Positions 1 to 51,455 of a stretch of 64,000 nt of DNA are shown one piece after another. The notes beneath the pieces were generated by a model. It was not told the DNA's origin and did not search any database. It saw only the letters and a program-made list of their open reading frames with translations. Source of the DNA: a virus; the IMG/VR virus record IMGVR_UViG_3300017746_000001, positions 1 to 64,000 of that record; one strand, written 5' to 3'. Position numbers and translations under genes: made by a program. How positions within the stretch are numbered: position 1 is the stretch's first letter; the number at the start of each line of letters is the position of its first letter.

Positions 1-1
1 A

Positions 2-208
2 TGGGGGAGTGATCCTGCCTATGATAGATTGAGTGTTGCCGCACTAGGTTTAGGGTCGTACATACTATTTACACACTTATACAGCACTAAACAGCCTTTG
101 TCACAAAGAGATCAAAACAGAATTCGTAATTTCCTCCTACTCGGAGGCGCAGGTGCTTTAGCGACTGGAATGTTTCATGTAATTCCATATAATCTAAAAT
201 TGTTGTAG
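2..208 (+). CDS. Partial small membrane protein (5' end outside the window)
   Basis: Frame 2 is open from the window edge to TAG at 206-208 (WGSDPAYDRLSVAALGLGSYILF...FLLLGGAGALATGMFHV). It has two hydrophobic segments and is followed by the AGGTGAG RBS of the next gene. Confidence 0.6.
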   Translation, partial: WGSDPAYDRLSVAALGLGSYILFTHLYSTKQPLSQRDQNRIRNFLLLGGAGALATGMFHVIPYNLKLL

Positions 209-13000: not shown

Positions 13001-16000
13001 GTGCCGTTGTCCGAATCTTCGAAGAATTGAATGAAACCTGCACTTGTAGCTCCGTTCTTGAGTTGGATTGTATTTCCATTTGAGTCTAGATCTCCACCCA
13101 ATTGCGGAGAACTGTCATCAACAACATCAGATATTCCACTTGCACCAGATATGTTGTCAAGTTGCGTCTGTATAGCAGAAGTAACGCCATCTAAGTAGCC
13201 TAGTTCTGTGCTTGTTACTGCTGATACAGCAACTTTTCCAGAAGCGTTTGAAACTACCGCCCTGGATGCCGTTAGGTTGGAGTCGTCTATCGTAGTGGCC
13301 GCACCTGTGATTGTTGCTTGCTTTGCATCCAGTTGCGTCTGTATGGCAGAAGTAACGCCATCCAAGTAGCCTAGTTCTGTGCTTGTTACTGCTGAAACAG
13401 CGACTTTTCCAGAAGCGTTTGAAACTACCGCCCTGGATGCCGTTAGGTTAGAACCTGTTATCGTTGAGGCCGCGCCTGAAACAGATGATTGCTTTGCATC
13501 TAATTGCGTCTGTATAGCAGAAGTAACACCATCGACATAGTTCAACTCTGTTGGAGTGGCTGTGATTAGAGGGCTAGTTCCTGGATTTGCGGCAAAGGCC
13601 GCTAGGAATCCTTCATCTGCTGTGCTACCCAAGTCAGGAAGCTTGTAGGTGTGGTCTGCTGTCGGATCCACTATTGAGAGCGTTGTTTCGTGGGCATCAG
13701 CAGTCTCCCCTTCAAAGACAATTGCGTTTGCGGCATTCATGGTCACGGTGTCAACTGTGGTTGTTGTGCCGCTAACAGTTAGATTTGGAACTCTGAGCGT
13801 CCCTGTAGATGGGTTGTAATATAACGCACCATTGTCTTCCAAAAGTGCATTACTACCATCGGTGAAAACCAAGTCAAGATTCGAATTTGCGTTGCTGTCA
13901 GATACAGTTACAGTTGATGCGAGAGTTGCAGTAGCGGCTGTTCCGCTTGTGTCTGCTGCGTTGTTAGGGATTGAGCCGCTAACTAGAGTGATGTTCCCTG
14001 TACCATCGAAAGAAACACCACCAATCGTTCGAGCAGTTGCTAAAGCAGTTGCAGTTGCGGCATTCCCGCTAGTGTCTGCTGCGTTGTCAGGGATTGAGCC
14101 ACTAACTAGGTTGATGTTCGCTGAACCATCGAAAGAAACACCACCAATCGTTCGAGCAGTTGCGAGAGCAGTTGCAGTTGCGGCATTCCCGCTTGTGTCT
14201 TGAGAACCAGAAGTATTCACACCAGGCAGATTGATGTTGGCTGATCCATCGAAAGAAACACCACCAATCGTTCGAGCAGTTGTTAGAGTTGCTGCACTTC
14301 CAGTAATGTTACTAGAGGTGAGGGCAACTGTTCCGGCTGTCGCAGGCAGAGTGATTGTGACATCCCCCGTTGCGGCAGGGCCGATTAGAGTTACTTTGTT
14401 GGTGCCGTTGTCTGAATCCTCGAAGAATTCAATGAAACCTGCACTTGTAGCTCCGTTCTTGAGTTGGATTGTATTTCCATTTGAGTCTAAATCTCCACCT
14501 AATTGCGGAGATGTGTCTTCAACGACATTAGATATTCCACCTCCGCTTGCTGAAATGTAGGTCTGAACATCTGACATAAGCACTTTCTTTGTTGCGTTGG
14601 ATGCAGATGCGTCACCTATGATTAATGAATCTCCATCGGCCAATGTAACGGAAGAACCCGAAGTTCCAGCGTCAAGTATATTGATTTCTGTTGCGTTCGA
14701 AGTTACACTTGTTAGGTCCGTTGGTCCGATAGATATGTTTGCTGAACCGTTAAACGACTGCCCTGCAATCGTTCTTGCAGTAGCGAGAACCGTTGCAGTA
14801 GCAGCATTTCCGCTTGTATCTTGATTACCTGTAGCATTAACACCAGGAAGGTCAATATTGGCAGAGCCGTTGAAAGACACCCCCCCAATGTTTCTTGCAG
14901 TAGCGAGAACCGTTGCAGTAGCAGCATTGCCGCTTGTATCTTGATTACCTGTAGCATTTACACCAGGAAGGTCAATATTGGCAGAGCCGTTGAAAGACAC
15001 GCCTCCAATGTTTCTTGCAGTTGCCAATGTTGTCGCCGTGTCTGCATTTCCTGTTACATCACCCGTTAAGTCTGCTGTAACGCTACTAAATTGAGGAGTT
15101 GCATCTGTCGATAGATCTTGGTTGATTACTGAATCCGCCTCGATGCTTAGAGCCCCACCTACCGTAATTGTCTTTGTAGCATTTACATCGAGAGTGAGGA
15201 CTGCGTTTGCTGCCGTACCTGCTCCCTTGAGTGTCCAGTCGCCCGTACCATCCGTTTTGAAGAATCCAGTTGCAGAACCGTTTTCCTCGATTTCTAGACC
15301 TGTTGCTGTTCCACTTCCTGCACTTCCTCCATCATTCAGAGTGATTAGTTTGTCAGCAATTAGCGTATTTGTTGTTGAAACCGTAGTCGTTGTTCCGTTG
15401 ACGGTCAAATTACCTGCGACTGTAAGTGCGCCTTCCAAAGCTACTGCTTTGTCGGAAGTAATTGTAACAGCCGTAGCGAGGCTGTTTGCAGAATTACCTG
15501 TTGAGCCTGCAGCAGTAGCGACCTGTAGTATGATTGAGCCACCCGCGCCCGTACCCGTACTCTGGCCTGCCGCGAGCGTGAGATTCTTTCCTGCCGTGTC
15601 GGTGCCGCTTACTGCGGTGGATGAAATTAGATTATTTGCTGAGTTGGAGAATTTGAGTGCTGAAAGAACTGCACCTCCAGTTATTATGTCTTTAGTTGCT
15701 GCCGCAGTAAGCAGGTTGTTATCGCTATCAGAGAATGAATCACCAGAGGCCAACAAGGTTTTTCCTGAAACGATGTTTAATTGAGCAGTTGAGGCTGTAA
15801 CCCCGTCTAACTTGTTTACTTCTGCCGTTGTGACTGTTGCGCCCTCTAAAATTCCAAGTTCTGTTTCACTTACATTTACAGAACCAATTCCTATTTCACC
15901 CGTAAATGTAGGATTTGCTATTGGGGCTCGAAGTTCAATTGCTGTTTCGTTGGCCTGTAAAGCCTGTTTAATCGTTTGACTATCAGAAATTGTAGAGCCT

Positions 16001-18984: not shown

Positions 18985-18991
18985 TTTCTAT

Positions 18992-19279
18992 TCAACTCCC
19001 GATGACATGCAATTTCTGGCTCGACGAGCCACTAATTGCATACACCAGGTTCGAATTCGAAATCTTGAGCGTCTGCGAGGCCCCTGCTGCGAGAGGGAAA
19101 CCGTTGCCCGTAGTAACTGAGGAAGAGTTGCCTAAGAAAATGATTGCAGAATTGTTTGCATCTGCTAGAATTGTCAATGAGTCTGCAGGAGCAGAAGAAG
19201 TTAATGCTGCTGCAGATGTTCCAACAGTTGATTGAAACTGAATTACTGCGTCAGGCAAACCTCCGAATACTCCACTCAT
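18992..19279 (-). CDS. Small beta-rich virion protein (putative spike/vertex adaptor)
   Basis: ADxxN...FLGN...GFPL..G...K.S.S.LVY..S...Q..HVIGS is shared with the N-terminus of 6130-7476. Confidence 0.75.
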   Translation of the reverse strand: MSGVFGGLPDAVIQFQSTVGTSAAALTSSAPADSLTILADANNSAIIFLGNSSSVTTGNGFPLAAGASQTLKISNSNLVYAISGSSSQKLHVIGS

Positions 19280-19285
19280 TTTTTA

Positions 19286-19879
19286 TCACCTCAGTACCTT
19301 TTTTTGGTATCTAACTACTTCGATAAAGTCTATGCTCAAGTTTTGCGAAGCATCTGTGTTAGATATGATTAGTCTTATTCTTTCTTTGTGAGGGTGTTGG
19401 TCGCTACCTCTGAACAAAGCGACCTTTTCATCCGTCTTATCGACAGTCAAGTGGAACATACCTGGAAGGTCTGATGGAAGGTTTAGATCTGTTAATGTGT
19501 CTAGCGTTAGATTCTTGACCCCCGAATCTATTCCGCCTTGTGCGTAGTTATCTAATTGTAAGAATATTGCTAGTTTTCCTGCACTTGCTGTTGAACCTGT
19601 GCTTGCCTTGATTAGAACATAATTTACTTGTCCTTGTTCTCTTTCATCGATTATCGTCAATGATTGCCCAGGAGTAAGGGTCTTATTGTCTATTCTTGTA
19701 GTAATATATCGATTTGAAGTATTATCAGCAGGAGTTTCCTTTGTTGCTAGACCTTGCGCACGCAGTCCTTCGGACGGAAGCCCAGGGAATGCAATAATAT
19801 CGGGTTCTCCAGGTTCTCCGATAATATCTGTGTAGCCATCTGGACCGACTTCAATCCATTCGCCACTCAACAAAACCAC
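19286..19879 (-). CDS. Putative penton/minor capsid beta-sandwich protein
   Basis: Alternating beta-strand pattern; lies between the capsid candidates and the spike genes. Confidence 0.45.
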   Translation of the reverse strand: MVLLSGEWIEVGPDGYTDIIGEPGEPDIIAFPGLPSEGLRAQGLATKETPADNTSNRYITTRIDNKTLTPGQSLTIIDEREQGQVNYVLIKASTGSTASAGKLAIFLQLDNYAQGGIDSGVKNLTLDTLTDLNLPSDLPGMFHLTVDKTDEKVALFRGSDQHPHKERIRLIISNTDASQNLSIDFIEVVRYQKKVLR

Positions 19880-19916
19880 CCCTTAAGAGGACAATACCCA
19901 CAATTCCCGTCACACA

Positions 19917-21278
19917 TCAGTTGTACCCCCTATGATTGTTTCTTGGGTCGGCCCCTTGCTCCGAGTTGCGTGAGCCAGTCGTGCCGTATAGAATGTTCCG
20001 AGTTTGAGAGGAGGTTTGCTCCGTCATTCTCTTGTAATCTTCGTAGGATAATTTTTGACCTCTGTTCTTCTGAACGAGTTCTCTCCAACCAATAGAAGGT
20101 GCGCTTTTGCTATCGCCCATCAGGTTGCTCTTTGTGAAGGCCGTTGGTATTATCTCGTATTTGAAGCGGCCAGACCTTCTGATCATTTCTCTTACTTCTC
20201 TTTCTGGAACAGGCCTTACTGAATATTTCCACCCGACCATAATTAGATATGGTGCTATCAATGGAGCGTTTGTGTGCCTATTCATAATTTGAAATTCGGG
20301 ACTTGTCTCCTCCCCAGCACCTATCCACAGGTCAAAGTGAGGGTTCAAGTCGGATTCGGAGCTTGAGTGAACTTCTATCATGCCGCTTTTCCCTTGAAGG
20401 ATTTTGTCAGAAGATATGTTCATTGAATTTACTTCGTCAGCAGCGAATCTGATAACTCCTTGGGGCTGAAAAACCCTCAAAGAAGGACCGATGACACCCA
20501 CCATTGTAGGTTTTGCTCCTGTTCCTATCTCATCCCCATCTACGGATTTGTTCGATACTGCAACTACCGAAGTTTGATCTTCGTATTCATGGGCTTGTAA
20601 CGAAGTTACGCTTCCCGCCCTACTAATCAGAGTAGGGTGTTCTGAAACCCCTATTGAAACATGATAAATTGGAGAGTCCGTACTTGTCCCTTTTGGTGTG
20701 GGTTCAAGAATATCGACTCCTTGTGGGTCTAATACTATAGCACCATTAGATGTAGATGCCGCAGGTAGTCTGAGAAGTGTCGCTTCATCCCCTACTGTTA
20801 TTCGGTCAGTCACGATTGTCTCAGCCGTTGTAATAACTGAGCCAGTTGCAGAGCCAAGATTCCCACCTGCTAGTGATTGAACCGTGACGAATTGGTTCTC
20901 TTGTCTGTATGCCTGCGCACCCAACAAGAGCGTATCTCCCACCGCAGGTGTGATAGAAGCGAGATTTGAGGCTTGGCTGTTAGTCCCTAGTTGGTTGGTG
21001 TCATTCAACTTGACTGTTACCGCAGATGAAGATACTGCAGAAATTGTGCAAGGTATTCCAAAGAAATGTCTTATTGATATTGGTTCGGCAGATACGACTC
21101 TGTGCAAACCACCATCTAACATCACAAGTTTGCCTGTAGCATACTTTCTGTCTAAGTAATTTCCCGATTGAGGCGATATTCTTCCCAAGTGTGGCCCACG
21201 AAGAACTTCGTTTGCTGCTCGAACATGCCCAGGCATCTGCTTGGACTTAGTTCCCAATTGTGCTGGAGTTAGTGACAA
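19917..21278 (-). CDS. Putative capsid protein, large paralog
   Basis: C-terminal region aligns by eye with 21291-22019 (QPQGVIRFAADE vs HPAGVARWSADE; NPHFDLWI vs NPNFAIWI; LIMVGWK vs IHLVGFK). Confidence 0.5.
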   Translation of the reverse strand: MSLTPAQLGTKSKQMPGHVRAANEVLRGPHLGRISPQSGNYLDRKYATGKLVMLDGGLHRVVSAEPISIRHFFGIPCTISAVSSSAVTVKLNDTNQLGTNSQASNLASITPAVGDTLLLGAQAYRQENQFVTVQSLAGGNLGSATGSVITTAETIVTDRITVGDEATLLRLPAASTSNGAIVLDPQGVDILEPTPKGTSTDSPIYHVSIGVSEHPTLISRAGSVTSLQAHEYEDQTSVVAVSNKSVDGDEIGTGAKPTMVGVIGPSLRVFQPQGVIRFAADEVNSMNISSDKILQGKSGMIEVHSSSESDLNPHFDLWIGAGEETSPEFQIMNRHTNAPLIAPYLIMVGWKYSVRPVPEREVREMIRRSGRFKYEIIPTAFTKSNLMGDSKSAPSIGWRELVQKNRGQKLSYEDYKRMTEQTSSQTRNILYGTTGSRNSEQGADPRNNHRGYN

Positions 21279-21290
21279 TTAGTTTCCCCC

Positions 21291-22019
21291 CTAAATCATG
21301 TTAGGGGAGCCACCTAGTTCAGCCGTTATAGCACCTGCATAGGGTAAGCCCTGTGGCACTATTAGCTTGTAAACGAGCCTTCCACCATTTATTCTTCTGG
21401 CCTCTTCTATGTCTGACTCTGCCATAGGGCTTAATCGAGCCTTAAAACCGACCAGGTGAATGACTGGATAATAAAGTGCCTCACCTGTGTCATTTAAAAA
21501 TCTAAAATTAGGTAGCATAGACTCAGATGACTCGATCCATATTGCGAAGTTTGGATTCGGGTCATCAATTGGGCTAGTGTTCACATCAATGAAACCTGTC
21601 TTATCATTTTCAGGCGCTTCATCGGCACTCCAACGGGCTACGCCTGCTGGATGCTTCAAAAATACCTTACCAGATATGTCTCCAACTTTAGTTCTAGCAG
21701 CGCCACCAATCGATTGTGTCGATGTAACGGTGACTACTGTAGCGTCGTTGGGGAATCCCACGCCATCATATGTACCTGTTCTTGATATGAACTTAGGTTG
21801 TCTGTATAGACATGGGACAAGACAGTATAGGTGATTTCTAAACGGTTCGAGGTCTTCATCCTCGAAGTAGCCGCTATCATAGGCATCACTTACTTCTGTT
21901 CCATTCGTGTTTCCTTGTGCGGTTACTACTAGATCGTAGGTAAGTCCTTCTACGCTGTCTACTGCGTAAAACTTACCACGGAGCTTGATAATAAAACCAG
22001 GCTTCAAGGTGTTTTCCAT
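21291..22019 (-). CDS. Putative capsid protein, small paralog
   Basis: Beta-rich; paralogous to the downstream 453-aa ORF. Confidence 0.5.
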   Translation of the reverse strand: MENTLKPGFIIKLRGKFYAVDSVEGLTYDLVVTAQGNTNGTEVSDAYDSGYFEDEDLEPFRNHLYCLVPCLYRQPKFISRTGTYDGVGFPNDATVVTVTSTQSIGGAARTKVGDISGKVFLKHPAGVARWSADEAPENDKTGFIDVNTSPIDDPNPNFAIWIESSESMLPNFRFLNDTGEALYYPVIHLVGFKARLSPMAESDIEEARRINGGRLVYKLIVPQGLPYAGAITAELGGSPNMI

Positions 22020-22117
22020 GGGGTTGTACCCCCTTACTGTCGGGCTTCTTCCAAAATTTACTCTTGCTATTTTCTCACTTCCTTTTGTTTATGTAATTAT
22101 AGGTGTTTGATTGTGTT

Positions 22118-22429
22118 TTAGCCAAGGGCTTCTTTTTTCATCGCTTTTGCGCTGTCTGTGAAAGCCTTGGCATATTCTCCTCTCTTCATTGCTGAATCGA
22201 ATTTATCTCTTGCTTTAGGGAATAATCTGGTTGCAACATAGTATGCTAGCATTGTTGTTCCAATACCTGCAAGGTATGAGCCTGCGTCTGGATCAACGAA
22301 TGGCGAATTGTTATTCGGGGCTTCTGCCCCTAATCCACCATGCCACTTGACTGCTCCGCCTCGAGTTCTAGGAGTAACTGTACCCCCAATCCCACCACCG
22401 AAGAAGTTGTTGTTCACCATCTTATTCAC
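22118..22429 (-). CDS. Small membrane protein with GG/LG motifs
   Basis: NNFFGGGIGG and HGGLGAE precede a TM segment. Confidence 0.7.
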   Translation of the reverse strand: MNKMVNNNFFGGGIGGTVTPRTRGGAVKWHGGLGAEAPNNNSPFVDPDAGSYLAGIGTTMLAYYVATRLFPKARDKFDSAMKRGEYAKAFTDSAKAMKKEALG

Positions 22430-22788
22430 CTATTCATGTAAAGATATGCAGCACCGCAACAAATTGCTCCCAATAGGGGAACCGTCGGTACAGCACCGAA
22501 GAAAGGAATGTTAGTAGTTGTTCCTCGCCCAAACGCAATCGAGTTGATTGCCTTCAATGGCGAATTGTTATTCGACGCTTGATTGACTGGTGCCTGAGCT
22601 ACTTGCTCTGTTGCGCCAAAAGCGTGATTCTCATGCATACCCATGTAGCCTGAACGGCCACCAGGATAACCAAGAGATCCGAATCCGTGACTCATGTTGC
22701 CAGAAAACATCTCATTACCCATTTGGCCTGTACGGCCACCAGGATAACCAAGTCCTCCTCTGATACCATCCATGATAGTCACATCCAC
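22426..22788 (-). CDS. Small membrane protein with duplicated LGYPGGR motif
   Basis: GGLGYPGGR and GSLGYPGGR; C-terminal TM. Confidence 0.7.
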   Translation of the reverse strand: MDVTIMDGIRGGLGYPGGRTGQMGNEMFSGNMSHGFGSLGYPGGRSGYMGMHENHAFGATEQVAQAPVNQASNNNSPLKAINSIAFGRGTTTNIPFFGAVPTVPLLGAICCGAAYLYMNR

Positions 22789-22847
22789 ATAAACAACCTG
22801 AGCCCCCCTAGATCCCGAAGAACCTAGAGAGATTCAAGTTGATACGC

Positions 22848-23339
22848 TTAGAGGTTGCTCCTAGCGTTTGCGTAAACGATTAATCGGTATGTGTCTGTTC
22901 CACTTACCGGAGTAACGGCTGAACCGTCATCTGGGTCGTGCATAGATACTAGGAGACTTACTGTGCCTCCATCGACTGATTTAACAGATACCGAACCTGC
23001 TGTGTCATATACTGCGCCACCGCCGTCGTCCCAGGCAATGCTGCCATAAGCTCCGACAATGTCTATGTCATCCTTGTTGTCTCCAGATCCGAAGACAACT
23101 GATACTGGGCTGCCTGCAGCCGCCACAGTTCCTAGAGTGACTGAACCTGCACCGTACACGACTGAAAATCCAGTCGTAGCACCTGCATTGGCTGTTGTCG
23201 CCCCTTCACCGTTGATGAAGAGTGCATCGCCGTTGGTCCACTTACCAGTTACATGCAGCAGGTGTAGGGCGGGCTTGGAACCAGTAGCTAGTTCGTAGCC
23301 ACCGATTGCGCTTTGTGCTAGAGTTCCTTGGTCTCCCAT
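22848..23339 (-). CDS. Beta-rich virion protein
   Basis: GAGGTGA RBS; Gly/Ala/Thr/Val-rich; in the structural cluster. Confidence 0.65.
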   Translation of the reverse strand: MGDQGTLAQSAIGGYELATGSKPALHLLHVTGKWTNGDALFINGEGATTANAGATTGFSVVYGAGSVTLGTVAAAGSPVSVVFGSGDNKDDIDIVGAYGSIAWDDGGGAVYDTAGSVSVKSVDGGTVSLLVSMHDPDDGSAVTPVSGTDTYRLIVYANARSNL

Positions 23340-23376
23340 TTCCTCTCACCTCACTCCTGACTGATCCCAAAAGGGC

Positions 23377-23973
23377 TCAGTTTAGTTCCCCACTAGATGT
23401 AGTTTGTTGAATTAATTCGTGATGTTGACCCACAACACAACCCACAACACGGATTTTCTCTGCTGAGAGAGCCGTAGATGCCTGGCGTGTTCTTACATCC
23501 CATGCAATTGTTTTCTCTGGTTCGACCACAAGTGGTTCCGTATAGAACACAAGTGGTTCCTCAAGAACGCTCATTATTGAATTTTCCACCACAGGGGTAG
23601 TAATTCCAGCGATTGACCATTGTGTTTCAACAATATTTAGCGGATTTACAGCGTACTGTAAACCTTGCATCATCACATATAGTTCCTCAAGGGTTTTGAA
23701 GTCCAGAGCTTTGCTTATCCATCCTGTGGATGCGCTCGTCTTACTTCCGGTGGTCCCAATGGCTGTGTTTGGAATTTGCCAAACACCTTGGGTGTCTAAA
23801 ATACTAAAGTGATCTGCACGCAGTCCACCTGTACCATATTCACCCTTTGCCCATATACCGCGGTTTTTTCCGCCCCAGTTAGGGTAGGCATAGGCAATGA
23901 AGCCATTGATCTGATCGAGGTAATCCGCGATCAGAGCAGCAGGTCTGTCAAAATATACTTTAAACATACTCAT
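23377..23973 (-). CDS. Candidate single-jelly-roll major capsid protein
   Basis: 198 aa and beta-rich (EPLVVEPEKTIAWDV, IRVVGCVVG). First gene of the structural operon with a strong RBS. The fold is inferred. Confidence 0.45.
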   Translation of the reverse strand: MSMFKVYFDRPAALIADYLDQINGFIAYAYPNWGGKNRGIWAKGEYGTGGLRADHFSILDTQGVWQIPNTAIGTTGSKTSASTGWISKALDFKTLEELYVMMQGLQYAVNPLNIVETQWSIAGITTPVVENSIMSVLEEPLVFYTEPLVVEPEKTIAWDVRTRQASTALSAEKIRVVGCVVGQHHELIQQTTSSGELN

Positions 23974-24048
23974 TTTTTTTTCATCTCCATTTTTTTAGGT
24001 GCGCCCTTCGACGCTGACCTTTCCTCTGACCATTTAGATATAAGGTGC

Positions 24049-24098
24049 GGTAGCCTCTCGTAGCATGGCGTAGTCCTCTCGTAGTCCTCTCGTAGTCC
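24049..24098. repeat. GTAGTCCTCTC direct repeats in a divergent promoter region
   Basis: GTAG-CCTCTC, GTAGTCCTCTC twice and GTAGTCC lie between the capsid operon and the RHH gene. Confidence 0.7.
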
Positions 24099-24142
24099 AT
24101 TGTTCCGAAGAGGTCAAAGGACAACCGCGCCTGAGAGTAATT

Positions 24143-24364
24143 GTGTCTAAGAAGGATCCGAAGGAACACATGATTCGAATACGGTTGAGTGGCGATGATT
24201 ATACCGATTTGAAATTTGTTGCTGAAGCTCTACAAATACCATTGTCCACTTGTTTTCGTATGCATGGCTTAAATGGGTTAAGAGAGAAAAAGAACGATTT
24301 AATGACAGACAACAGTAGACGACAGAGACACCAGGAAATGTTGAGGCAACAACTGGGGGAGTGA
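24143..24364 (+). CDS. Ribbon-helix-helix-type regulator
   Basis: IRIRLSxDDYxDLKxVAExLxIPLSTxFR. Confidence 0.65.
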   Translation: MSKKDPKEHMIRIRLSGDDYTDLKFVAEALQIPLSTCFRMHGLNGLREKKNDLMTDNSRRQRHQEMLRQQLGE

Positions 24365-24368
24365 TAAA

Positions 24369-24806
24369 ATGGAACTTCGGGGTAAGAAATGTCAGACCTG
24401 TGGACACATTACAGGGACAATGAACACTCAATGCGAAGAGTGCGATGGAATAGATCTAATTGATTATGTTCAGGAGATAGAACCAGGAGAGAGGGCTTTC
24501 TGGGGCGTTACAATAAGTAAGCCGATTGAAACTACAAAACAGGCATGGCAGTTTGAAGAAACAGTTCTGGCTAGTTCACTAAAATGGAGAGATTTCTATG
24601 ACGGCCATGCTGTCGAGGTAAGAGCTACTGTAGGAGAAGGAATAGAAGTCTCAATTATAGAGATGCATTGGTACTTCGAACAAAGTGATGCTCACTCTTC
24701 CGTAGATCTTCAAACACATTTTATTGGAATGAGACCAGGGCTGATGAGTGAAGCAGTAATTTCTGTCGAATTTTATGATGAGTTGATTATTGAGGATGTA
24801 GAGTAG
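24369..24806 (+). CDS. Zn-ribbon-containing protein
   Basis: N-terminal CQTC...CEEC; GGAGTGA RBS. Confidence 0.7.
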   Translation: MELRGKKCQTCGHITGTMNTQCEECDGIDLIDYVQEIEPGERAFWGVTISKPIETTKQAWQFEETVLASSLKWRDFYDGHAVEVRATVGEGIEVSIIEMHWYFEQSDAHSSVDLQTHFIGMRPGLMSEAVISVEFYDELIIEDVE

Positions 24807-24901
24807 TATGTGCGGGGTAATTCCTGTAAAGTGTCCTAATTACACTCATTGTCAAAGGTGGATAATTGCAAAGGGTTGCCCCCTTTGCGACAGATTGTAA
24901 A

Positions 24902-24991
24902 TTAACCTAATATTGGAGATACGCTCATCACCGTAAGAGCGAAAGATGCGTAAAACCCTATGAGTATTGCTAGTATGTGTCCTGAGTTCAT
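24902..24991 (-). CDS. Possible 29-aa single-TM micropeptide
   Basis: MNSGHILAILIGFYASFALTVMSVSPILG, translated manually. Confidence 0.3.
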   Translation of the reverse strand: MNSGHILAILIGFYASFALTVMSVSPILG

Positions 24992-25087
24992 TAGCCTAGT
25001 GTGTAATGATTGATTAATCAATGTGTGTTTAATAGACTTACAGGGTATTGAAATCCCTGCATCATCAGATATAGTTCTTCGAAGGTG

Positions 25088-25181
25088 CGAGAGAGTAGTC
25101 CGGTTGCAACAAACGACTGAAAGAAATACAGGCTAGAGGTGAACTACTCCCTCGGCTTTGGAAAAAATTCCCCTAGCTTGT
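25088..25181. ncRNA. Candidate pseudoknotted RNA element
   Basis: Interleaved complementary segments 25088-25099/25143-25154 and 25128-25139/25170-25181, plus a hairpin at 25101-25119. Confidence 0.35.
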
Positions 25182-25210
25182 GAGAGTATCATATTGTCAC
25201 CTGTTTTGGT

Positions 25211-25717
25211 TTACATTTGTATGGTGCTTACTTTATTCGCTAAATTATTCAGCAAATCGGGCTCATTAGAAGCCCTAGCGTTGTCAAGTAGCATAGCGTC
25301 TTCCATTGTTGGTTGAACTGCTGCAGACATTGAGCCTTGTGAAAGATATTCAGTCCTCTTGCCTATTTGCCCTACATCTAATTTAGATGCTAACAATGCG
25401 CCTGTGAAAGATACACTTGCGGTTCTTGCTCTGCGGAGCGCCCCTTTCTTCAAGTAGCCCATGTCAATTGCTTCTTTTTGGATCATGTCGGTAGCCAGGA
25501 GAGCCAGTCCTGATGTTAGGATGGCTCCCCCAGTAGTACCGTACACATTCCTAGCATACTTGGAACGGTAAGTGGTTTCGTTCATACCTGCCTGGGCGAC
25601 AAAGTTTGCCGCTTCCATAGCGAGTGCGAAGGCACCTAACCCTGCTGCACAAGTCCCTAGAATAACTCCGTTCTCTTTAGTGAGAACATTTTCTAGGCGC
25701 TTAGGTATTAACTCCAC
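25211..25717 (-). CDS. Membrane protein
   Basis: Two to three hydrophobic Gly/Ala-rich helices. Confidence 0.7.
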   Translation of the reverse strand: MELIPKRLENVLTKENGVILGTCAAGLGAFALAMEAANFVAQAGMNETTYRSKYARNVYGTTGGAILTSGLALLATDMIQKEAIDMGYLKKGALRRARTASVSFTGALLASKLDVGQIGKRTEYLSQGSMSAAVQPTMEDAMLLDNARASNEPDLLNNLANKVSTIQM

Positions 25718-25733
25718 TAGAACAACCCCCTAC

Positions 25734-27140
25734 TCAGAAGAGGTTGACTCTAGTTGAACCTAGGCTCTTTGTTCCAAAGAACTTGTTATTGCTGTGTGCT
25801 GCTGTGTTGTTAGAAGCCATAGCAAGAGCAAGGTTGTTAGTTACATGAGCGCCATGCATCATACCCATGTCGTGGCCTCCAGCCATCAACATGTTGTTAG
25901 AGTGCATACCGAACATATCGTTAGTCAAAGATCCAAGACCGCCACCAGTTCCACTTAGGAATGGGACACTTGGCATACCAAGAGCCGCGTAGTCACCTGC
26001 TGCTAATGCAGAGGCGTTCTGACCGATGCTTAGTGTCTGTAGGTTTCTAATCATGTCTGCGACAATGAATACACCAGCTACACCTGCTCCAGCCTTGACG
26101 AACTTAGTGTCAACTCCGAATCCCTTGCTTGCGACTGTGGAAAGACCAGACAAGAATGCTAGGTCAATAGCGGTGTCTAGTAAGACTCCACCATCTCCAT
26201 TTCCTAATCCACCTGCTGCGCTGATTGCTGGACCTGTGACATTGTTACCAATCATGTCCGATACATACGGAATGTTGTTTCGCATTGCGCCAGTTAGACC
26301 CATCATCATAAATCCAGCGAAGGAAGAGTAAGCAAGACCCTTCATTAAGTTACCAGAATCAGAAATTAGTGCGCCTGGGACTCCCATGAATCCTTCTTGG
26401 ACACCCTTTAGGTTGATTTTGCTTGGAAGGAATCCTAGGAAATCGCTACCCTTTACACTACCAGTTGTGAACTTAGCACTTCTGGATGTGCGGCGCTTTG
26501 CCTTTCTCTTAGTGGTTCGGCGCTTTGTACCAGTAGCTCTGCGAGTTCTCCAGCCTTTCTTTGCTGCTGCTGATCTCTTAGCCTTGGTCATGCGTGTAGT
26601 CTTTCTCTTAGAGGATGTGCGCTTTGCAGCAGTTCTCTTAGTGGACTTTCTGCGTACAGTCTTAGCCTTTCGAGAGCGAGCAGAACGCTTTGCAGCGTTA
26701 GATCTCTTTGTAGCCTTAGCCCTGCGAGTTCTCCAGCCTTTCTTTGCTGCTGCAGATCTCTTAGTCTTGGAAGGTCCTCTCTTTGTAGCCTTTCGTGTAG
26801 AAGCCCTCTTTGTGGACTTCTTTCGAGTTGCTGCTGCCTTCTTGGCTGCAGAAGAACGCTTTGCAGCGTTTCTCTTTCGAGTTGCTGCTGCCTTCTTGGC
26901 TGCGGAAGAACGCTTTGCAGCGTTTCTCTTCCTTGTTGCTGCTGCCTTCTTAGCGGCTGCAGACCTGGAAGCTTTCGTGCCGCCTCTACGGACGGACTTG
27001 CGGGCTGATCTCTTAGTTACTCTCTTTTTTGCGGGCATCTTTTTCACCTTGTTAGTAGTTCTTGGAGGGTTGACTAAAACCAATCTTCCCTCACTCATTG
27101 GATAGTGGGTCTTACCATCAGCATATAACCGGACTGTCAT
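25734..27140 (-). CDS. Histone-H1-like basic protein fused to a membrane-associated domain (putative core/DNA-condensing protein)
   Basis: About 190 aa of K/R/A/S/T repeats (SAAKKAAATRKRNAAKR, KKGWRTRRA), then hydrophobic helices and GGLGS/SLGS motifs. Confidence 0.8.
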   Translation of the reverse strand: MTVRLYADGKTHYPMSEGRLVLVNPPRTTNKVKKMPAKKRVTKRSARKSVRRGGTKASRSAAAKKAAATRKRNAAKRSSAAKKAAATRKRNAAKRSSAAKKAAATRKKSTKRASTRKATKRGPSKTKRSAAAKKGWRTRRAKATKRSNAAKRSARSRKAKTVRRKSTKRTAAKRTSSKRKTTRMTKAKRSAAAKKGWRTRRATGTKRRTTKRKAKRRTSRSAKFTTGSVKGSDFLGFLPSKINLKGVQEGFMGVPGALISDSGNLMKGLAYSSFAGFMMMGLTGAMRNNIPYVSDMIGNNVTGPAISAAGGLGNGDGGVLLDTAIDLAFLSGLSTVASKGFGVDTKFVKAGAGVAGVFIVADMIRNLQTLSIGQNASALAAGDYAALGMPSVPFLSGTGGGLGSLTNDMFGMHSNNMLMAGGHDMGMMHGAHVTNNLALAMASNNTAAHSNNKFFGTKSLGSTRVNLF

Positions 27141-27219
27141 ACTAAGTATCGTTGAAAACTACAATGTCGTCAATTGTCGTGGCGGAATGAATATACGACG
27201 ATGACCCTTCCTACACTAC

Positions 27220-27432
27220 ATGCGCACGAGAGGAAGGGAGAAAAAAGAAAGCAGGGTTTTGTCTTTGAGAATACCCGAAGAATTGTATTTGCGCATCAAA
27301 CAACAGGCTGATGATGAGAATAGAACGGTCAATAACCTACTTATTACATATATTATAGCCGATATTAATTTTTCAACATCAGAACATAAGGCTAAACTCG
27401 AAGGTAAAGACCGTAACCGTAGAAGAAGGTAG
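27220..27432 (+). CDS. Arc/ribbon-helix-helix DNA-binding protein
   Basis: VLSLRIPEELYLRIKQQADDENRTVNNLL. Confidence 0.8.
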   Translation: MRTRGREKKESRVLSLRIPEELYLRIKQQADDENRTVNNLLITYIIADINFSTSEHKAKLEGKDRNRRRR

Positions 27433-27440
27433 GTGGGGTC

Positions 27441-28205
27441 GTGGATAATCCTCCCTCTAGATTGATAAAACGCATGGATGCCCTTATTGACGGCATCAGA
27501 AGTGGTCATCTTGTGATTTGTGGTCAGACCAGATACGGAAAAAGCACAGCAGCCATGTGGTTCTATCTTAATCAGAATCTATTTGATGGTAGAAAGAGCG
27601 CAACACATATTTTCTTTGATACTAAACATGATGATGACATACTACAACATGGATTTGTCGCGAAAAGTATTGAGGACTTGACATACTATCTAAGTTTGAA
27701 GCCTAAAAGAATTATTTATCGGCCACCAGGGACTACTGAAAGAGAAATACACCTTACTAATGTTGTAAATTTGTTATTCAAAAATAAAGAAAAGGCCCGA
27801 TACAAGGGGTGTGCTTATGCACTTTTCATAGATGAAGTTCAATTGTACGCTCGTAAGGGGAGTCGCCACGAAGGATTGGAGAGGCTTTCAACAACGGGTG
27901 CAGGAAAGAGCATCCACGGCATTGTAATCGGACAGAGATTACAAGATATTCACGAGCAGACACTATCTCAATGCAATAGTCGTATGGTTTTCTTTATGCA
28001 AGAACGGCCTGAATACCTCAAATCTCGGTTGATGAGTGATCTAGTGAATTGGATGGACTGGTTGAAGGAGAATCCCTATTATTTTGCATTTCAAACTCTT
28101 GCGTCTGTGGACTGGCAATTACACGCCCCCGTCCCTTTACCCGCAAAACCAATCGACCCTTATTCCGATAAGTTCGCTCCGCCCCCTTCAAGAAGAAGGT
28201 ATTGA
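27441..28205 (+). CDS. A32/P9-like FtsK-HerA superfamily genome-packaging ATPase
   Basis: Walker A GQTRYGKS, FFDTKHD, Walker B LFIDEVQ and GIVIGQRLQDI...SQC. Stand-alone ~250-aa size is typical of tailless icosahedral viruses. Confidence 0.8.
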   Translation: MDNPPSRLIKRMDALIDGIRSGHLVICGQTRYGKSTAAMWFYLNQNLFDGRKSATHIFFDTKHDDDILQHGFVAKSIEDLTYYLSLKPKRIIYRPPGTTEREIHLTNVVNLLFKNKEKARYKGCAYALFIDEVQLYARKGSRHEGLERLSTTGAGKSIHGIVIGQRLQDIHEQTLSQCNSRMVFFMQERPEYLKSRLMSDLVNWMDWLKENPYYFAFQTLASVDWQLHAPVPLPAKPIDPYSDKFAPPPSRRRY

Positions 28206-28241
28206 ACCATTTCGGTATAATAGCTTCAAAAGCACCTGCAA

Positions 28242-29744
28242 TCAATTCATCTCATCCCTGAATGATTCTTGTATGGGCTTTGACTTTTGTATTTCATCAG
28301 TCCTAAGTAAAGATATTGCGTTTTCAGTTGCAGTCCCCATACTAGATAGAACTAGAGTCAACGGCTCTTGGACATGATTCATGTCTTCAATTGATTCGGT
28401 TCTAGGATTGACCCCTAGGTTTGGATTCAAGGATAATTCGAACATAGTATCAATTATATCCATTGAAGCCGTTTCTGCTAGAGTTTTTGGTATTACCATC
28501 AAGGCTTCTGCAAACGCTAGTTTTGCTAAGTCTGCTCTTGATGACTCCATTGGCTCGGAGTGTTTTATTGCTTGAGCCATTCTTGCTTGAATTGAACCCG
28601 CCCCTGGTACTGTCTTAGGATTCTTGGCCGTAATGTAAGCAACTCCTATGGCATCATCCATCGCTCTAGAAAATTCTGCTGCTGTTTGTTCTGTTTGAGC
28701 AGGTAGTATGATAGAGGCTACTTTTGTGTTGCTCCCTACTACCTGAATGTATGGATTGGGTCCTTCTTGCCCCCTTATTGTGCATACACCATCCCCTAGT
28801 TCTTCTTCCATTATGTCTGCAAGGTCAGTTACAACCTCACCTTCCGTTGCTTTGGCTACTCTGTGCATGTCACTTTTTCTGATGTTCCTTACTGCCATCA
28901 TTCCTTTTCTTCTGAAATGTTGTATGGCTTTTGAGTCCATTCCTTTCTGACACAATACGATTTTGATGCCCATGTCGTCAATTGCTTTCAGCCTCTCTTC
29001 CATATATGCTGCTTGGACTTGAGCTACTTGCGCTATTCTAGTAGGGTCGGCAAGAGAGATGTTAGCTTGAGGAGGCCCTAGTTCCTCATCTAGTAGCAAT
29101 ACCTTTCCTGAAAAGTTGGTTTCTTCTGTAGGGAAGGAGTTCTGCTTTAATAGGACAACACCTTCTATCAGTTCTGCATCGCTTGGATCGCCTGGACGAC
29201 CAATTAACTTGATATTATCTGGCGTGGCGGCTTCTGCGGCTTTAGCACATATGTCGCTTAGAATATCGATGTAGTCTTCCGCAGATTTTCCAGTAATGGC
29301 GGTCTTCGCTACTTTTTTTGCGGCATCATACGGTGAATCTCCCGTAGTGGCGTTTTGTTCTGCTACATCAGTTGCGATTTCTAATGCTGCACGATAGCCT
29401 TTGGTTATTGCATTTGGTTGAACACCCTTTTCTATCAATTCCCATGCAAGTTTGAGAAGTTCTCCGAGAAGGACTACTGTAGTTGTAGTGCCGTCGAATA
29501 CTGCTTTCTCTTGGGCTTTGGCGACTTGAGCGACAATTCTTGCCACTGGATCTCTGTCGTGCCTCATCTTTAGAATTGTAGCGCCATCATTAGTCAGTAG
29601 GAACTCTCCCATCCTATCGACGAGCATTTTGTCATGCCCCAATGGCCCTAGTGTTGAGCGTACCCTTTCAGCCACTTCTTGCGCTTTCTCGACAATGTGC
29701 TTCTGTGCATCTCTTCCCTTTAGTGTCTCAAACTCGTCGTCCAC
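28242..29744 (-). CDS. Group II chaperonin (thermosome-like) subunit
   Basis: STLGPLGHDKMLVD, TNDGATIL, DGTTT, AKTAITGK, VPGAG, FAEAL..IPKTLAE and AISLLRTD. Confidence 0.95.
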   Translation of the reverse strand: MDDEFETLKGRDAQKHIVEKAQEVAERVRSTLGPLGHDKMLVDRMGEFLLTNDGATILKMRHDRDPVARIVAQVAKAQEKAVFDGTTTTVVLLGELLKLAWELIEKGVQPNAITKGYRAALEIATDVAEQNATTGDSPYDAAKKVAKTAITGKSAEDYIDILSDICAKAAEAATPDNIKLIGRPGDPSDAELIEGVVLLKQNSFPTEETNFSGKVLLLDEELGPPQANISLADPTRIAQVAQVQAAYMEERLKAIDDMGIKIVLCQKGMDSKAIQHFRRKGMMAVRNIRKSDMHRVAKATEGEVVTDLADIMEEELGDGVCTIRGQEGPNPYIQVVGSNTKVASIILPAQTEQTAAEFSRAMDDAIGVAYITAKNPKTVPGAGSIQARMAQAIKHSEPMESSRADLAKLAFAEALMVIPKTLAETASMDIIDTMFELSLNPNLGVNPRTESIEDMNHVQEPLTLVLSSMGTATENAISLLRTDEIQKSKPIQESFRDEMN

Positions 29745-29798
29745 GAGTGTTTCAACCGTCTTTGCCGTTTAATTGCTATCTAATCTCAATGCTGAATG

Positions 29799-29889
29799 AA
29801 ACATTCTAGACGGAGTGACCGCTACCAACCGAACTAAACATACTGGATGGTGTGACCGCTACCAACCGAACTAAACATGCTAGACGGAG
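29799..29889. repeat. 37-bp-period direct repeat (~2.4 copies) upstream of the chaperonin
   Basis: GTGACCGCTACCAACCGAACTAAACAT is exact at 29815-29841 and 29852-29878, with CTAGACGGAG partial copies on the flanks. Confidence 0.85.
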
Positions 29890-29895
29890 AATGAA

Positions 29896-42040: not shown

Positions 42041-42051
42041 ACCAAATCCCC

Positions 42052-42282
42052 TCAGACATCTTCATCTCTTGCTGCAGAAATCGCTCCCGATATAGTTTGA
42101 ATGATTAGCAGGTTAGCTACACCCAACGCTAATGCATAGAATCCAAATCGGACTGGATTTGAAAATATTCCAATAGGGCCGTAAAGTGCCTGATCTAATT
42201 CTCTAGAGAAGGTGTTTTGTATTGCGTTCACTTCTTTGTTCAAATCAAAACTCATCTTAATCCACCAACCATAGTTTACCAT
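42052..42282 (-). CDS. Small TM protein
   Basis: FGFYALALGVANLLIIQ; likely start ATG 42255. Confidence 0.6.
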   Translation of the reverse strand: MVNYGWWIKMSFDLNKEVNAIQNTFSRELDQALYGPIGIFSNPVRFGFYALALGVANLLIIQTISGAISAARDEDV

Positions 42283-42853: not shown

Positions 42854-42857
42854 TATA

Positions 42858-48433: not shown

Positions 48434-48443
48434 TGTATCACAC

Positions 48444-51451: not shown

Positions 51452-51455
51452 CTAA

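Follow-up and report, generated by a model that had tools for sequence, protein, structure and literature searches.

The question raised by this locus is what kind of particle is built by a virus that encodes its own thermosome and no recognisable head-tail machinery. The window, the 64,000-nt stretch of DNA analysed here, is one half of a virus record of 128,784 bp. A direct terminal repeat of 123 bp occupies positions 1..123 (unstranded) and again 128662-128784 of the contig, with the first 100 bases recurring at offset 128661, and since the same 123 bp stand at both contig ends, the genome is complete, either circular or terminally redundant. The record is classed under 'direct terminal repeats' in IMG/VR and has a CheckV value of 100%. 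A first-pass annotation made from the sequence had proposed an unusually large, tailless archaeal virus, and the size holds for the complete genome, which is several-fold larger than those of its known cousins SH1 (30,889 bp), PRD1 (14,927 bp) and SPV1 (20,222 bp; PMC8459092). We read the segment 18992-29744, together with the fibre genes that extend to ~8064, as the morphogenetic module of a tailless jelly-roll dsDNA virus, complete at 128.8 kb, that infects a marine archaeon, at a probability of roughly two in three (about 0.68). This supports the first-pass annotation in its main lines, as the modelled capsid candidates did adopt jelly-roll folds and neither Pfam nor the PHROG families listed showed an HK97-type gene set on the contig, while for the membrane and the host we infer rather than observe.

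The gene block at 18992-29744 has a single gene order in all 31 metagenome loci compared, as far as each locus extends. Its capsid-sized, beta-rich reading frames had been singled out between 19286 and 23973 as possible jelly-roll proteins, and two of them, a 242-aa protein (21291..22019, minus strand) and a 198-aa protein with an N-terminal helix (23377..23973, minus strand), were modelled with AF2. The 242-aa model had a pLDDT of 79 and a pTM of 0.75; confidence in the 198-aa model is no more than moderate (pLDDT 65.7, pTM 0.64), and three of its five models had a pLDDT below 45. Both are predicted to be jelly-roll-class beta-sandwiches of the single jelly-roll kind (Helvetiavirae- or SPV1-like), as had been expected. 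A VIA comparison with 48,161 representative chains put the SPV1 capsid chain 6oj0_T first among those that match the 198-aa model over its whole length (Z 7.7, rmsd 3.7, 135 of 178 residues aligned), 1.1 Z above the next match, and a second comparison again placed SPV1 6oj0 first (Z 7.6, 136/178 aligned). The same SPV1 chain was the best whole-chain match of the 242-aa model (Z 6.6, 139 aligned), whose matches are jelly-roll sandwiches; these Z values are all middling (<8) and indicate the fold class, with no kinship implied. The 178-residue chain is presumably VP4, judged by the many identical chains in 6oj0. Foldseek returned nothing at E ≤ 1e-3 for the 242-aa model against PDB and BFVD, and at that threshold gave two matches for the 198-aa model, each to a large protein of several domains (a glucanotransferase and Cry1Aa). 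Since nucleoplasmin, GOLD and CUB sandwiches score level with most capsid chains, the comparisons show the fold class and leave both proteins as candidates for the capsid role.

As candidate major capsid proteins, these two are also the most constrained products of the block. The 198-aa protein is the most conserved (94-99% identity in close loci, 50-73% in distant ones; 65 homologue clusters) and the 242-aa protein the second most (93-96% and 60-68%; 43 representative matches), above what the ATPase (41-60%) and thermosome (47-49%) retain in distant loci. Adjoining the 242-aa gene lies that of a 453-aa protein (19917..21278, minus strand) that is its paralogue (BLASTP 7e-19, 30% over 175 aa), with an insert of about 200 aa in the middle and a conserved C-terminal tail; its relatives measure 457-1016 aa and those in distant loci retain 29-44% identity. 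It is a candidate for a tower-bearing capsomer subunit or for a vertex or spike base. Within the particle that we favour, the shell would consist of single jelly rolls, the bulk of the capsomers being most plausibly the 198-aa and 242-aa proteins. The 453-aa paralogue would share their lattice, with its variable insert serving as tower or vertex base. Downstream of the paralogue pair, a 197-aa protein (19286..19879, minus strand) kept in synteny at 28-94% identity, for which profile comparison with the 198-aa and 242-aa families gave no link, is a candidate for a vertex protein or a minor capsid protein. A conserved 95-aa protein (18992..19279, minus strand; PHROG 30212, 1.3e-6, function unknown) is encoded between the fibre and the capsid genes. 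These two could form the vertex and receptor-binding complex together with the adjacent repetitive 2989-aa fibre protein (10015..18984, minus strand), a candidate receptor-binding spike that keeps its place in synteny and is replaced by short proteins in distant relatives. A 648-aa fn3/Ig-domain protein (8064..10010, minus strand; Pfam fn3, 5.3e-19) adjoins the fibre. A Gly/Ala/Val-rich protein of 163 aa (22848..23339, minus strand; 72-93% identity in closer loci), without a match in family searches, is a candidate minor structural protein by its syntenic position.

The remaining genes of the block suggest what may lie beneath the shell. Membrane proteins had been described as many, which held only in part. 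By a strict hydropathy criterion (Kyte-Doolittle, mean over 19 residues at least 1.6), a TM-like segment is present in 2 of the 16 ORFs of the range, at 22426-22788 and 25211-25717; hydrophobicity short of the 1.6 mark is seen in the 103-aa ORF and in the C-terminal half of the 468-aa one. The first of these segments is C-terminal (residues 94-112) in a 120-aa protein which, with the 103-aa protein (both within 22118..22788, minus strand), is a candidate virion membrane protein by hydrophobicity and synteny; the second covers residues 18-36 of a syntenic 168-aa protein (25211..25717, minus strand). These few small hydrophobic proteins would be consistent with an internal membrane. The 468-aa protein (25734..27140, minus strand; 29-91% identity in relatives) has a very basic, repetitive N-terminal half, with 102 Lys and Arg, and a Gly/Ala/Met-rich hydrophobic C-terminal half, a composition that makes it a candidate DNA-condensing protein tied to the membrane, so that a condensed DNA core might lie below it. 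RNA-library contigs from four studies span 20.7-24.0 kb and 25.0-27.1 kb, the latter across the 468-aa gene.

The A32-like ATPase recognised by the first-pass annotation proved to be a one-domain protein of 254 aa with no nuclease part (27441..28205, plus strand), which its profile matches assign to the PRD1 P9/SH1 ORF17 family and not to the terminases. Pfam gave only AAA_22 (0.0063), and PHROG 2666 was matched by the window ATPase (1.1e-12), two distant relatives (3.9e-12 and 6.7e-12), SH1 ORF17 (3e-76) and PRD1 P9 (1.1e-64), with phrog_7035 as a second match common to all five. In hhalign, the ATPase family matched SH1 and PRD1 together at 92.6% (E 4.6e-7, 166 columns), PRD1 P9 alone at 92.1% (E 6.1e-7, 193 columns) and SH1 ORF17 at 59.3%, and the control comparison with the HK97 TerL gave 0.2%. 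Across 10 relatives, both Walker motifs (A, GQTRYGKST; B, FIDEVQ) are invariant. The gene is present on 16 of the 31 loci, and the remaining 15 end before its position. In the favoured reading, the DNA would be handled by this A32-like ATPase (FtsK-HerA), in place of a terminase-portal machine.

The arrangement resembles that of SH1, whose ATPase shares a PHROG with that of the window, and in which a small and a large capsid-type gene likewise adjoin each other, with small membrane-type genes among them and the ATPase gene on the opposite strand. Capsid chains of the Helvetiavirae match the 198-aa model at middling values (HCIV-1 5.1, P23-77 5.0, HHIV-2 4.8, SH1 4.7) that again speak to fold. 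Sphaerolipoviruses lack a tail and carry fibre or spike genes downstream; the window virus would have no tail either and would probably be icosahedral. It departs from the sphaerolipoviruses in that its small and large proteins are paralogous in sequence, in having the unrelated 198-aa protein as a third jelly roll, and in a genome (128.8 kb against 30.9 kb for SH1) in which Pfam recognises a thermosome, RNA polymerase parts and PCNA of the virus's own. PRD1, which stands for the Bamfordvirae with A32-like ATPases, shares the ATPase PHROG and the P9 profile match and also keeps fibre or spike genes near its capsid genes, but its 14.9-kb genome encodes one capsid protein, a double jelly roll, whereas the models from the window are single jelly rolls.

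An SPV1-like (Portogloboviridae) particle was considered as well, in which single jelly-roll hexamers and pentamers would cover a membrane round a nucleoprotein coil of the 468-aa protein, the genome being enclosed at assembly, with no pumping into a shell already formed, and the ATPase having a lesser or other role. The shell of SPV1, an icosahedral archaeal virus, is made of single jelly-roll hexamers (VP4) and pentamers (VP10), and inside it are a membrane and a basic nucleoprotein core of VP1 (PMC8459092), to which the Lys- and Arg-rich 468-aa protein would offer a candidate counterpart; its chain is the best whole-chain match of both models, and the terminal overlap of the window genome fits a circular molecule. 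We nevertheless regard this arrangement as unlikely, because a P9/ORF17-type ATPase is conserved throughout the family of the window virus while the ICTV profile lists no ATPase among the assigned functions of SPV1 (PMC8459092), and because the Z margin over the sphaerolipovirus capsid chains is about 2.5 and lies in the middling range. SPV1 also differs in its 20.2-kb genome and its hyperthermophilic crenarchaeal host.

Much less probable is a head-tailed, magrovirus-like member of the Caudoviricetes, whose HK97 capsid, portal and terminase would have diverged beyond the reach of Pfam and PHROGs, whose jelly rolls would serve as tail, baseplate or decoration proteins, and whose ATPase would have another role. 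An HK97 capsid or portal that has diverged strongly can escape profile searches, and for many large ORFs (443-1068 aa, at 36-62 kb) no fold is assigned. There are strong matches to PHROGs of the 'tail fibre/tail protein' type (best 4.9e-97), one of which, PHROG 7911 'tail protein', falls on the 2989-aa ORF; PHROGs annotated as 'major tail protein' match the fn3 protein at 8064-10010 through their Ig-like ends; and ESM Atlas clusters, including that of the 198-aa protein, bear automatic 'Uroviricota' labels. The tail-type matches sit, however, on the fibre and on an fn3/Ig domain (residues ~263-480 of the 648-aa protein, to which its PHROG matches are confined), modules that are not tied to tails. 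Terminase, portal, HK97 capsid and tail tube families were absent among the 14 Pfam families found in 56 window ORFs of at least 60 aa (E ≤ 1e-3), among the 22 found in 103 ORFs of the other half (E ≤ 1e-4), and among the PHROG families listed (the best 25 of 32, 44 and 37, beyond which weak structural matches could lie), and protease, sheath and tape-measure families were absent from the 159 ORFs by Pfam and from the PHROG matches listed. The earlier failure to recognise a terminase, portal or tail-tube gene in the window therefore extends, by Pfam, to all 128.8 kb. The sole packaging-type ATPase is, moreover, the 254-aa protein described above, without a nuclease domain and at 0.2% against TerL, and no HK97-capsid virus is known to use the P9/ORF17 family.

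Thermosome genes are themselves known from head-tail magroviruses (PMC5434244). The group II chaperonin noted at the end of the block is a thermosome subunit of 500 aa (28242..29744, minus strand), which was confirmed by Pfam Cpn60_TCP1 (1.6e-101) and by a PDB sequence search in which all of the best 60 matches listed were thermosome or CCT chains (top 1.3e-78). Homologues adjoin the block in 13 of the 31 loci, and it is a core gene of the virus family. The chaperonin phylogeny proposed by the first-pass annotation does not place the virus within Poseidoniales: virus-type sequences form their own deep clade, and the window protein is 34-37% identical to cellular thermosomes. Retained next to the block across the family, it most likely would fold the beta-rich structural proteins. 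Magroviruses A-C of Marine Group II are likewise marine, with genomes of ~65-100 kb and a thermosome in some, but their thermosomes are reported to group with MG-II homologues, and they have a full replication set and a block of MCP, portal, protease and terminase that is easily recognised by sequence (PMC5434244). None of that block was found in the window virus, nor was DNA_pol_B in its 128.8-kb genome.

The lineage had been thought possibly undescribed, a view that has to be softened, as relatives were probably recorded earlier as 'magrovirus group D', with structural genes then reported missing. Group D (Philosof 2017; Xu 2023) is characterised by a DNAP, thermosome, resolvase and RNA polymerase A and by no known structural genes (PMC5434244, PMC10160649, PMC11706807). 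A 101-kb relative (G002:C22) carries DNA polymerase B, RNA polymerase A, resolvase and thermosome alongside the block, and so matches the published content with jelly-roll and ATPase genes in addition. The window genome has the thermosome, a resolvase and an Rpb1-domain-5 protein but lacks DNA_pol_B, its likeness to group D being one of gene content only. For group D, Xu et al. 2023 raise the idea of a plasmid and report its enrichment in the cellular size fraction (PMC10160649). A corresponding capsid-less mobile element with exapted jelly-roll and ATPase genes, to which a serine recombinase at 2417-3370 (Pfam) kept in relatives and the occurrence of relatives in archaeal and bacterial MAG bins would be agreeable, is very improbable here given a record classed as virus with terminal repeats, DNA found in runs labelled viral metagenome (all flagged as possible sources of the record, and so not independent), and an ordered block of two or three jelly-roll proteins, packaging ATPase, small hydrophobic proteins and giant fibre under strong constraint down to ~30-50% identity. 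For the tailless jelly-roll virus that we favour, the archaeal-type genes and the bin labels together point to a marine archaeon as host.

Smaller features of the annotation stood in part. The motif GGTGA, described as the ribosome-binding site, occurs within 20 nt upstream of the start (taken as that of the longest frame) in 2 of the 16 ORFs of the range and in 15 of 159 genome-wide, against 1.1% of random 20-mers, so that it is enriched yet not general. Among the ribbon-helix-helix regulators, one has a profile match, to RHH_5 at 27271-27342 (E 1.3e-5), which falls short of the Pfam cut-off; the other, a 73-aa product of 24143-24364, is RHH-like by eye only. The latter gene is paired with one for a 145-aa acidic protein with a CxxC...CxxC pattern (24143..24806 for the two, plus strand); neither protein had a match in a family search, and both are kept in relatives. 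The gene for the RHH_5-matching protein, of 70 aa (27220..27432, plus strand), immediately precedes that of the ATPase in the same orientation and adjoins it in 16 of the 31 loci.

The virus record is a single contig of 128,784 bp, of which the window is the first half; its first 123 bases are repeated at the end, it is classed under direct terminal repeats, and CheckV gives a completeness of 100. Since the genome is complete, the entire sequence could be examined beyond the 64-kb window, and 159 non-overlapping open-reading frames (ORFs) of at least 60 aa were counted, 56 in the window and 103 beyond it. The region at 18992-29744 is supported as a large virus's set of morphogenetic genes, encoding jelly-roll proteins, an A32-type ATPase and a thermosome kept across the family, and the virus is apparently tailless and archaeal; its architecture, membrane, host and the roles of individual proteins are what we infer. 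The first-pass annotation had read the region as part of a large, tailless, membrane-containing archaeal virus with its own thermosome; that observation as a whole was confirmed and its interpretation supported, including the large size (128,784 bp compared to 30,889 bp for SH1). A more specific reading, to which we give a probability of about 0.45, slightly short of even, is that this is the first morphogenetic module for a widespread family of 100-130-kb marine archaeal viruses, including the "MCP-lacking magrovirus group D", which would build tailless, probably membrane-lined single jelly-roll shells and pack their DNA with a PRD1/SH1-type ATPase.

A head-tail particle is unlikely on the gene content, because no head-tail hallmark families were found by Pfam or among the PHROG families shown, and the ATPase is not of the terminase type. 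The first-pass annotation had seen no terminase, portal or tail-tube gene in 64 kb, and over the whole contig none of these, nor an HK97 capsid, was found by Pfam or among the PHROG families shown. Pfam searches gave 14 families in the 56 window ORFs (E ≤ 1e-3) and 22 in the other 103 (E ≤ 1e-4), with no terminase, portal, HK97-type capsid, protease, tube, sheath or tape measure in either set, and no such families stood among the best 25 of 32, 25 of 44 and, for the 22 larger ORFs of the second half, 25 of 37 PHROGs. Whereas Caudoviricetes and magroviruses A-C carry a terminase large subunit with ATPase and nuclease parts, the 159 ORFs gave no terminase besides the mislabelled PHROG 2666 (for PHROGs, among the families shown). 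PHROGs named "tail fibre" or "tail protein" do match strongly. One of them, phrog_7911, was placed in the 2989-aa fibre ORF (10015-18984, minus strand), while phrog_6722 was not found in the six frames of the genome, though hmmscan had matched it at 4.9e-97 in some window ORF. Matches to "major tail protein" PHROGs are confined to residues 263-480 of a 648-aa protein, a stretch with an fn3 domain. On the fibre side, a 119-aa protein (5768-6127, minus strand) matches PHROG 7759 at 1.1e-41 and a 448-aa glycine-rich-domain protein (6130-7476, minus strand) matches PHROG 2295 at 4.8e-21; deposited phage genomes therefore share parts of the genes on this side. Window ORFs outside the 29 scanned individually matched Pfam DUF7831 (5.6e-36), DUF7689 (8.3e-22) and DUF5754 (6e-14), and further window matches were to PHROGs 3299 (2e-87) and 21552 (8.9e-60), both of unknown function.

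The claim of an A32-like ATPase was borne out. The 254-aa protein (27441-28205, plus strand) has only a weak Pfam match, to AAA_22, and matches PHROG 2666 at 1.1e-12. As this family carries the label "terminase large subunit", the annotated packaging ATPases SH1 ORF17 and PRD1 P9 (GenBank) were scanned too, and both proved to be members (3e-76 and 1.1e-64, respectively), as did two distant relatives of the window protein, with an identical second-best match in all five proteins. In hhalign, a ten-member profile of the ATPase aligned with SH1 ORF17 plus PRD1 P9 at 92.6% (E 4.6e-7, 166 columns), with P9 alone at 92.1% (193 columns) and with ORF17 alone at 59.3%, compared to 0.2% for the HK97 TerL control. 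The Walker A (GQTRYGKST) and Walker B (FIDEVQ) motifs are invariant in 10 relatives and fall opposite GTGKS and DEA in the alignment with the SH1/PRD1 profile. It is a one-domain P-loop protein without a nuclease domain, within the ~200-260 aa of the PRD1 P9/SH1 ORF17 class. Shared membership of PHROG 2666, the hhalign result with its HK97 TerL control and the invariant Walker motifs together confirm, at the level of sequence, its assignment to the PRD1 P9/SH1 ORF17 type (A32-like, FtsK-HerA). A tblastn search with the ATPase against 50,697 phage records gave no match, and a PDB sequence search returned nothing meaningful (best E 0.36).

Beta-rich, capsid-sized ORFs had been noticed in the block, and the models of two of them, the 242-aa and 198-aa proteins, proved to be jelly-roll-class sandwiches, each with a capsid chain of SPV1 (6oj0_T) as the best whole-chain match. 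The 242-aa protein (21291-22019) is a paralogue of the 453-aa protein (19917-21278; BLASTP 7e-19, 30% over 175 residues). Its relatives in 1.84 billion representatives numbered 43, 19 of them at E ≤ 1e-10, with lengths from 46 aa, the shortest being fragments, to 1016 aa; what they have in common is one strand at the N terminus and a block of ~120 aa at the C terminus, and the inserts that separate these differ greatly. In two relatives (P0025 and P0040), the called protein joins the C-terminal part of the small-type jelly roll to a domain like the 197-aa protein, which could reflect a fusion, read-through or an error of gene calling. The AlphaFold2 model of the 242-aa protein, made from the relatives' alignment, is all-beta (pLDDT 79, pTM 0.75). 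Foldseek gave no match for it in PDB or BFVD at E ≤ 1e-3, and the weak rows were jelly rolls (furin P domain, tymovirus and bromovirus coats, ASFV p72 and SH1). With an aligner independent of Foldseek, 36 chains reached a Z of at least 5, all of them jelly-roll-class beta-sandwiches, and the SPV1 chain matched best (Z 6.6, rmsd 4.0, 139 residues aligned), with which a second look agreed.

The 198-aa protein (23377-23973) has 65 homologue clusters, and its model is less confident (pLDDT 65.7, pTM 0.64; three of the five were poor) and shows a sandwich preceded by a helix at the N terminus. Among 48,161 chains, the best match was again the SPV1 chain (Z 7.7, rmsd 3.7, 135 of 178 residues aligned), with the next row 1.1 lower; in a second look, SPV1 was at the top at Z 7.6, followed by nucleoplasmin cores (Z ~6) and then by the capsid chains of HCIV-1 (5.1), P23-77 (5.0), HHIV-2 (4.8) and SH1 (4.7). 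All these Z values lie below the Z 8 mark, in the aligner's middling range; they are enough to establish the fold class and to suggest a nearest neighbour but do not show homology. For the 453-aa protein, the alignment suggests one roll with an insert, compared to the two rolls in the one capsid protein of Bamfordvirae. No relatives of the 453-aa protein or of its alignment were found in IMG/VR viral_contigs scans, which says little, as such scans may omit records close to that of the window. A prediction of the 453-aa and 242-aa proteins as a complex, run without controls, scored 0.01 against a mark of 0.32 and is evidence neither way. Comparison of the 197-, 198- and 242-aa families by hhalign gave no link, and the ESM Atlas gave no informative neighbour.

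The same block was present at 31 loci from a metagenome scan, whose ORFs were compared with the window genome by BLASTP, and a single gene order was found in every one of them, as far as each extends. The order starts with the thermosome, followed by the ATPase and an RHH gene on the other strand, the 468-aa basic protein, a 168-aa TM protein and two small other-strand genes, and continues with the 198-, 163-, 120-, 103-, 242-, 453-, 197- and 95-aa genes before reaching the fibre. Sixteen loci include the ATPase and 13 the thermosome; the rest stop short of those positions. Downstream of the fibre region, even the most distant loci keep a serine recombinase (2417-3370, minus strand; Resolvase 5.4e-36), and three small unknown proteins (5101-5562, 1597-2070 and 983-1600, all minus strand) are kept in order with it. 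In distant loci, identity is 60-68% for the 242-aa protein, 50-73% for the 198-aa protein, 41-60% for the ATPase and 47-49% for the thermosome, with 29-44% for the large paralogue (457-1016 aa long) and 28-41% for the 197-aa protein; short proteins stand in place of the giant fibre. These differences are consistent with a shell that is conserved and exposed parts that vary, and for that reason the 198- and 242-aa proteins are taken as the bulk capsid candidates. The large paralogue would be a candidate tower-bearing or vertex subunit. Adjoining the thermosome, a 2151-aa ORF (29896-36351, minus strand) has 42-81% identity in relatives and is presumably the source of the guanylate kinase matches (Pfam 9.9e-12, PHROG 1815 5.9e-15).

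Among known tailless viruses, the closest likeness in modelled fold is to SPV1 (Portogloboviridae), whose capsid proteins VP4 and VP10 are single jelly rolls and whose 6oj0 structure gave the best whole-chain matches at Z 7.7/7.6 and 6.6, below Z 8; however, SPV1 has no packaging ATPase among its assigned functions and a circular genome of ~20 kb (PMC8459092), whereas here the ATPase is conserved and the genome is 128.8 kb. The layout is similar to that of SH1, in which the ATPase lies on the opposite strand to the adjacent VP7 and VP4 genes with small membrane proteins among them. Helvetiavirae have two single jelly-roll major capsid proteins, upright in pseudo-hexameric capsomers, and an internal membrane; here, there are two modelled sandwiches and a third protein that is a paralogue of one of them, with only Z 4.6-5.1 to VP4/VP7-type and VP16/VP17 chains, and the genome of 128,784 bp far exceeds the 30,889 bp of SH1. 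The known tailless jelly-roll viruses of bacteria and archaea are small, at 14.9 kb for PRD1 and 30.9 kb for SH1 (GenBank records) and 20.2 kb for SPV1 (PMC8459092), and a complete 128.8-kb member would mean that the architecture does not set the size limit. If our reading is true, jelly-roll viruses of prokaryotes independently grew to "large virus" genomes equipped with their own chaperonin, PCNA and parts for transcription, in parallel to the eukaryotic path from small tailless viruses to giant viruses, and the lineage would merit classification as a new family or order, at the least, alongside Helvetiavirae and Portogloboviridae.

The proposed link to magrovirus group D comes from gene content. 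In Philosof 2017 (PMC5434244), group D has a DNA polymerase, thermosome, resolvase and RNA polymerase A, with no closed genome or morphogenetic block, and its nature is left open. In two later papers, of 2023 and 2025, the lack of an MCP and structural genes is repeated (PMC10160649, PMC11706807), and the earlier of them, by Xu et al., suggests a plasmid-like element (PMC10160649). The window genome has three of the four marks, namely, the thermosome, a resolvase-type recombinase and an Rpb1 domain-5 protein, and no DNA_pol_B. All four are on one contig of a relative, G002:C22 (100,964 bp, from a Flavobacteriales MAG bin), which has DNA_pol_B, an Rpb1 domain-5 match in a 1621-aa frame, a resolvase and a 512-aa thermosome (29% identical). 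The same contig also encodes a 333-aa small-type jelly-roll protein, a homologue of the 198-aa protein (51-54% identity) and the ATPase (31% identity); its loci L045-L050 lie at 39624-54104 and 63988-83187, and only 11 ORFs match the window genome at 1e-5. This relative combines the full group D gene content with the capsid module, and its identity with group D, drawn from gene content, is a well-founded proposal. Our literature search found no paper on jelly-roll or A32-type genes in group D-type elements. Because a relative with the group D gene content carries the jelly-roll and ATPase block, the question of virus, plasmid or something else, open since 2017, becomes directly testable and, if the reading is true, would be settled.

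The gene at 28242-29744 (minus strand) is certainly a group II chaperonin, as the first-pass annotation had it. It matches Pfam Cpn60_TCP1 at 1.6e-101 over profile positions 1-489 of 490, and all 60 of the best PDB matches shown are thermosome/CCT chains, none of them GroEL, with T. acidophilum thermosome alpha at 1.5e-77. A tblastn search at 1e-10 against the 50,697 phage records gave no match. Of 772 homologues at E ≤ 1e-50, the best 120 were examined; among these, rows at 42-100% identity, most of them 494-527 aa, are on contigs of up to 130 kb, and bit scores then drop from 391 to 280 at cellular thermosomes (~540 aa, 34-37% identity), the first named being Poseidoniaceae, Thermoplasmatota and Poseidoniales, closely followed by Bathyarchaeia. 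A FastTree phylogeny was built from 46 of the 120 rows, leaving out 74; rows were labelled "virus-type" by their length, their identity and the size of their contig. All 16 rows so labelled fall in a single clade on a long branch (SH-like support 100), and the phylogeny that had been proposed as a check gave the virus-type thermosomes a group of their own but no placement among Poseidoniales-labelled rows. In contrast, magrovirus thermosomes are described as close to MG-II homologues (PMC5434244). Since the virus-type thermosomes form their own clade, the chaperonin is an old core gene of the family. A chaperonin beside capsid genes through the whole depth of the family would be a clear case in which to study how capsid assembly in archaea depends on a chaperonin. 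A second group of short thermosomes, also on a long branch (512-516 aa; P0182, P0199, P0226, P0234 and P0236), lies apart from both the cellular rows and the virus clade, and the 512-aa thermosome of G002:C22 may belong to it.

The thermosome was rejected as a host indicator, as the virus-type clade lies outside the Poseidoniales rows and so does not fix the host. The predicted proteins taken together, namely, the thermosome, PCNA and the Rpb1 domain-5 and Rpb5 proteins, suggest an archaeal host. The bin labels of three genome_contigs loci (two archaeal, one Flavobacteriales) and two named homologues ("Euryarchaeota archaeon" and "Poseidonia sp.") are weak host evidence.

The lesser signals of the first-pass annotation held in part. 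Many TM proteins had been claimed, but under a strict test TM-like segments were found in two of the 16 ORFs of the range, and these are the sole hints of an internal membrane. GGTGA ribosome-binding sites precede two of the 16 ORFs of the range and 15 of the 159 in the genome, compared to 1.1% by chance, and RHH regulators came down to one sub-threshold RHH_5 match; both are weak items.

RNA libraries from four studies yielded contigs over 20.7-24.0 kb and 25.0-27.1 kb, including ones of 2,359 nt (20968-23326) and 2,907 nt (21105-24013); as DNA may be in the libraries, they do not prove transcription, and the uncovered parts of 17000-31000 (the fibre, the ATPase and most of the thermosome) are no finding. 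Depth is highest on 23312-23849, though depths cannot rank genes, and 14 DNA runs with this stretch, all flagged as possible sources, were not counted. The 468-aa protein (25734-27140, minus strand) has a very basic, repetitive N-terminal half (102 K+R, with AAKKAAATRKRNAAKRSS-type repeats) and a hydrophobic, Gly/Ala/Met-rich C-terminal half; in RNA-library contigs from two studies, its gene lacks 96 nt (26591-26688) inside the repeats, probably a repeat-number variant. In one RNA-library run (X19), a contig stops at 22799 in a loose stretch of 15 T on the plus strand, which reads as an A-run on the coding strand 49 nt past the stop of the 163-aa gene and could be a 3′ tail or a library artefact.
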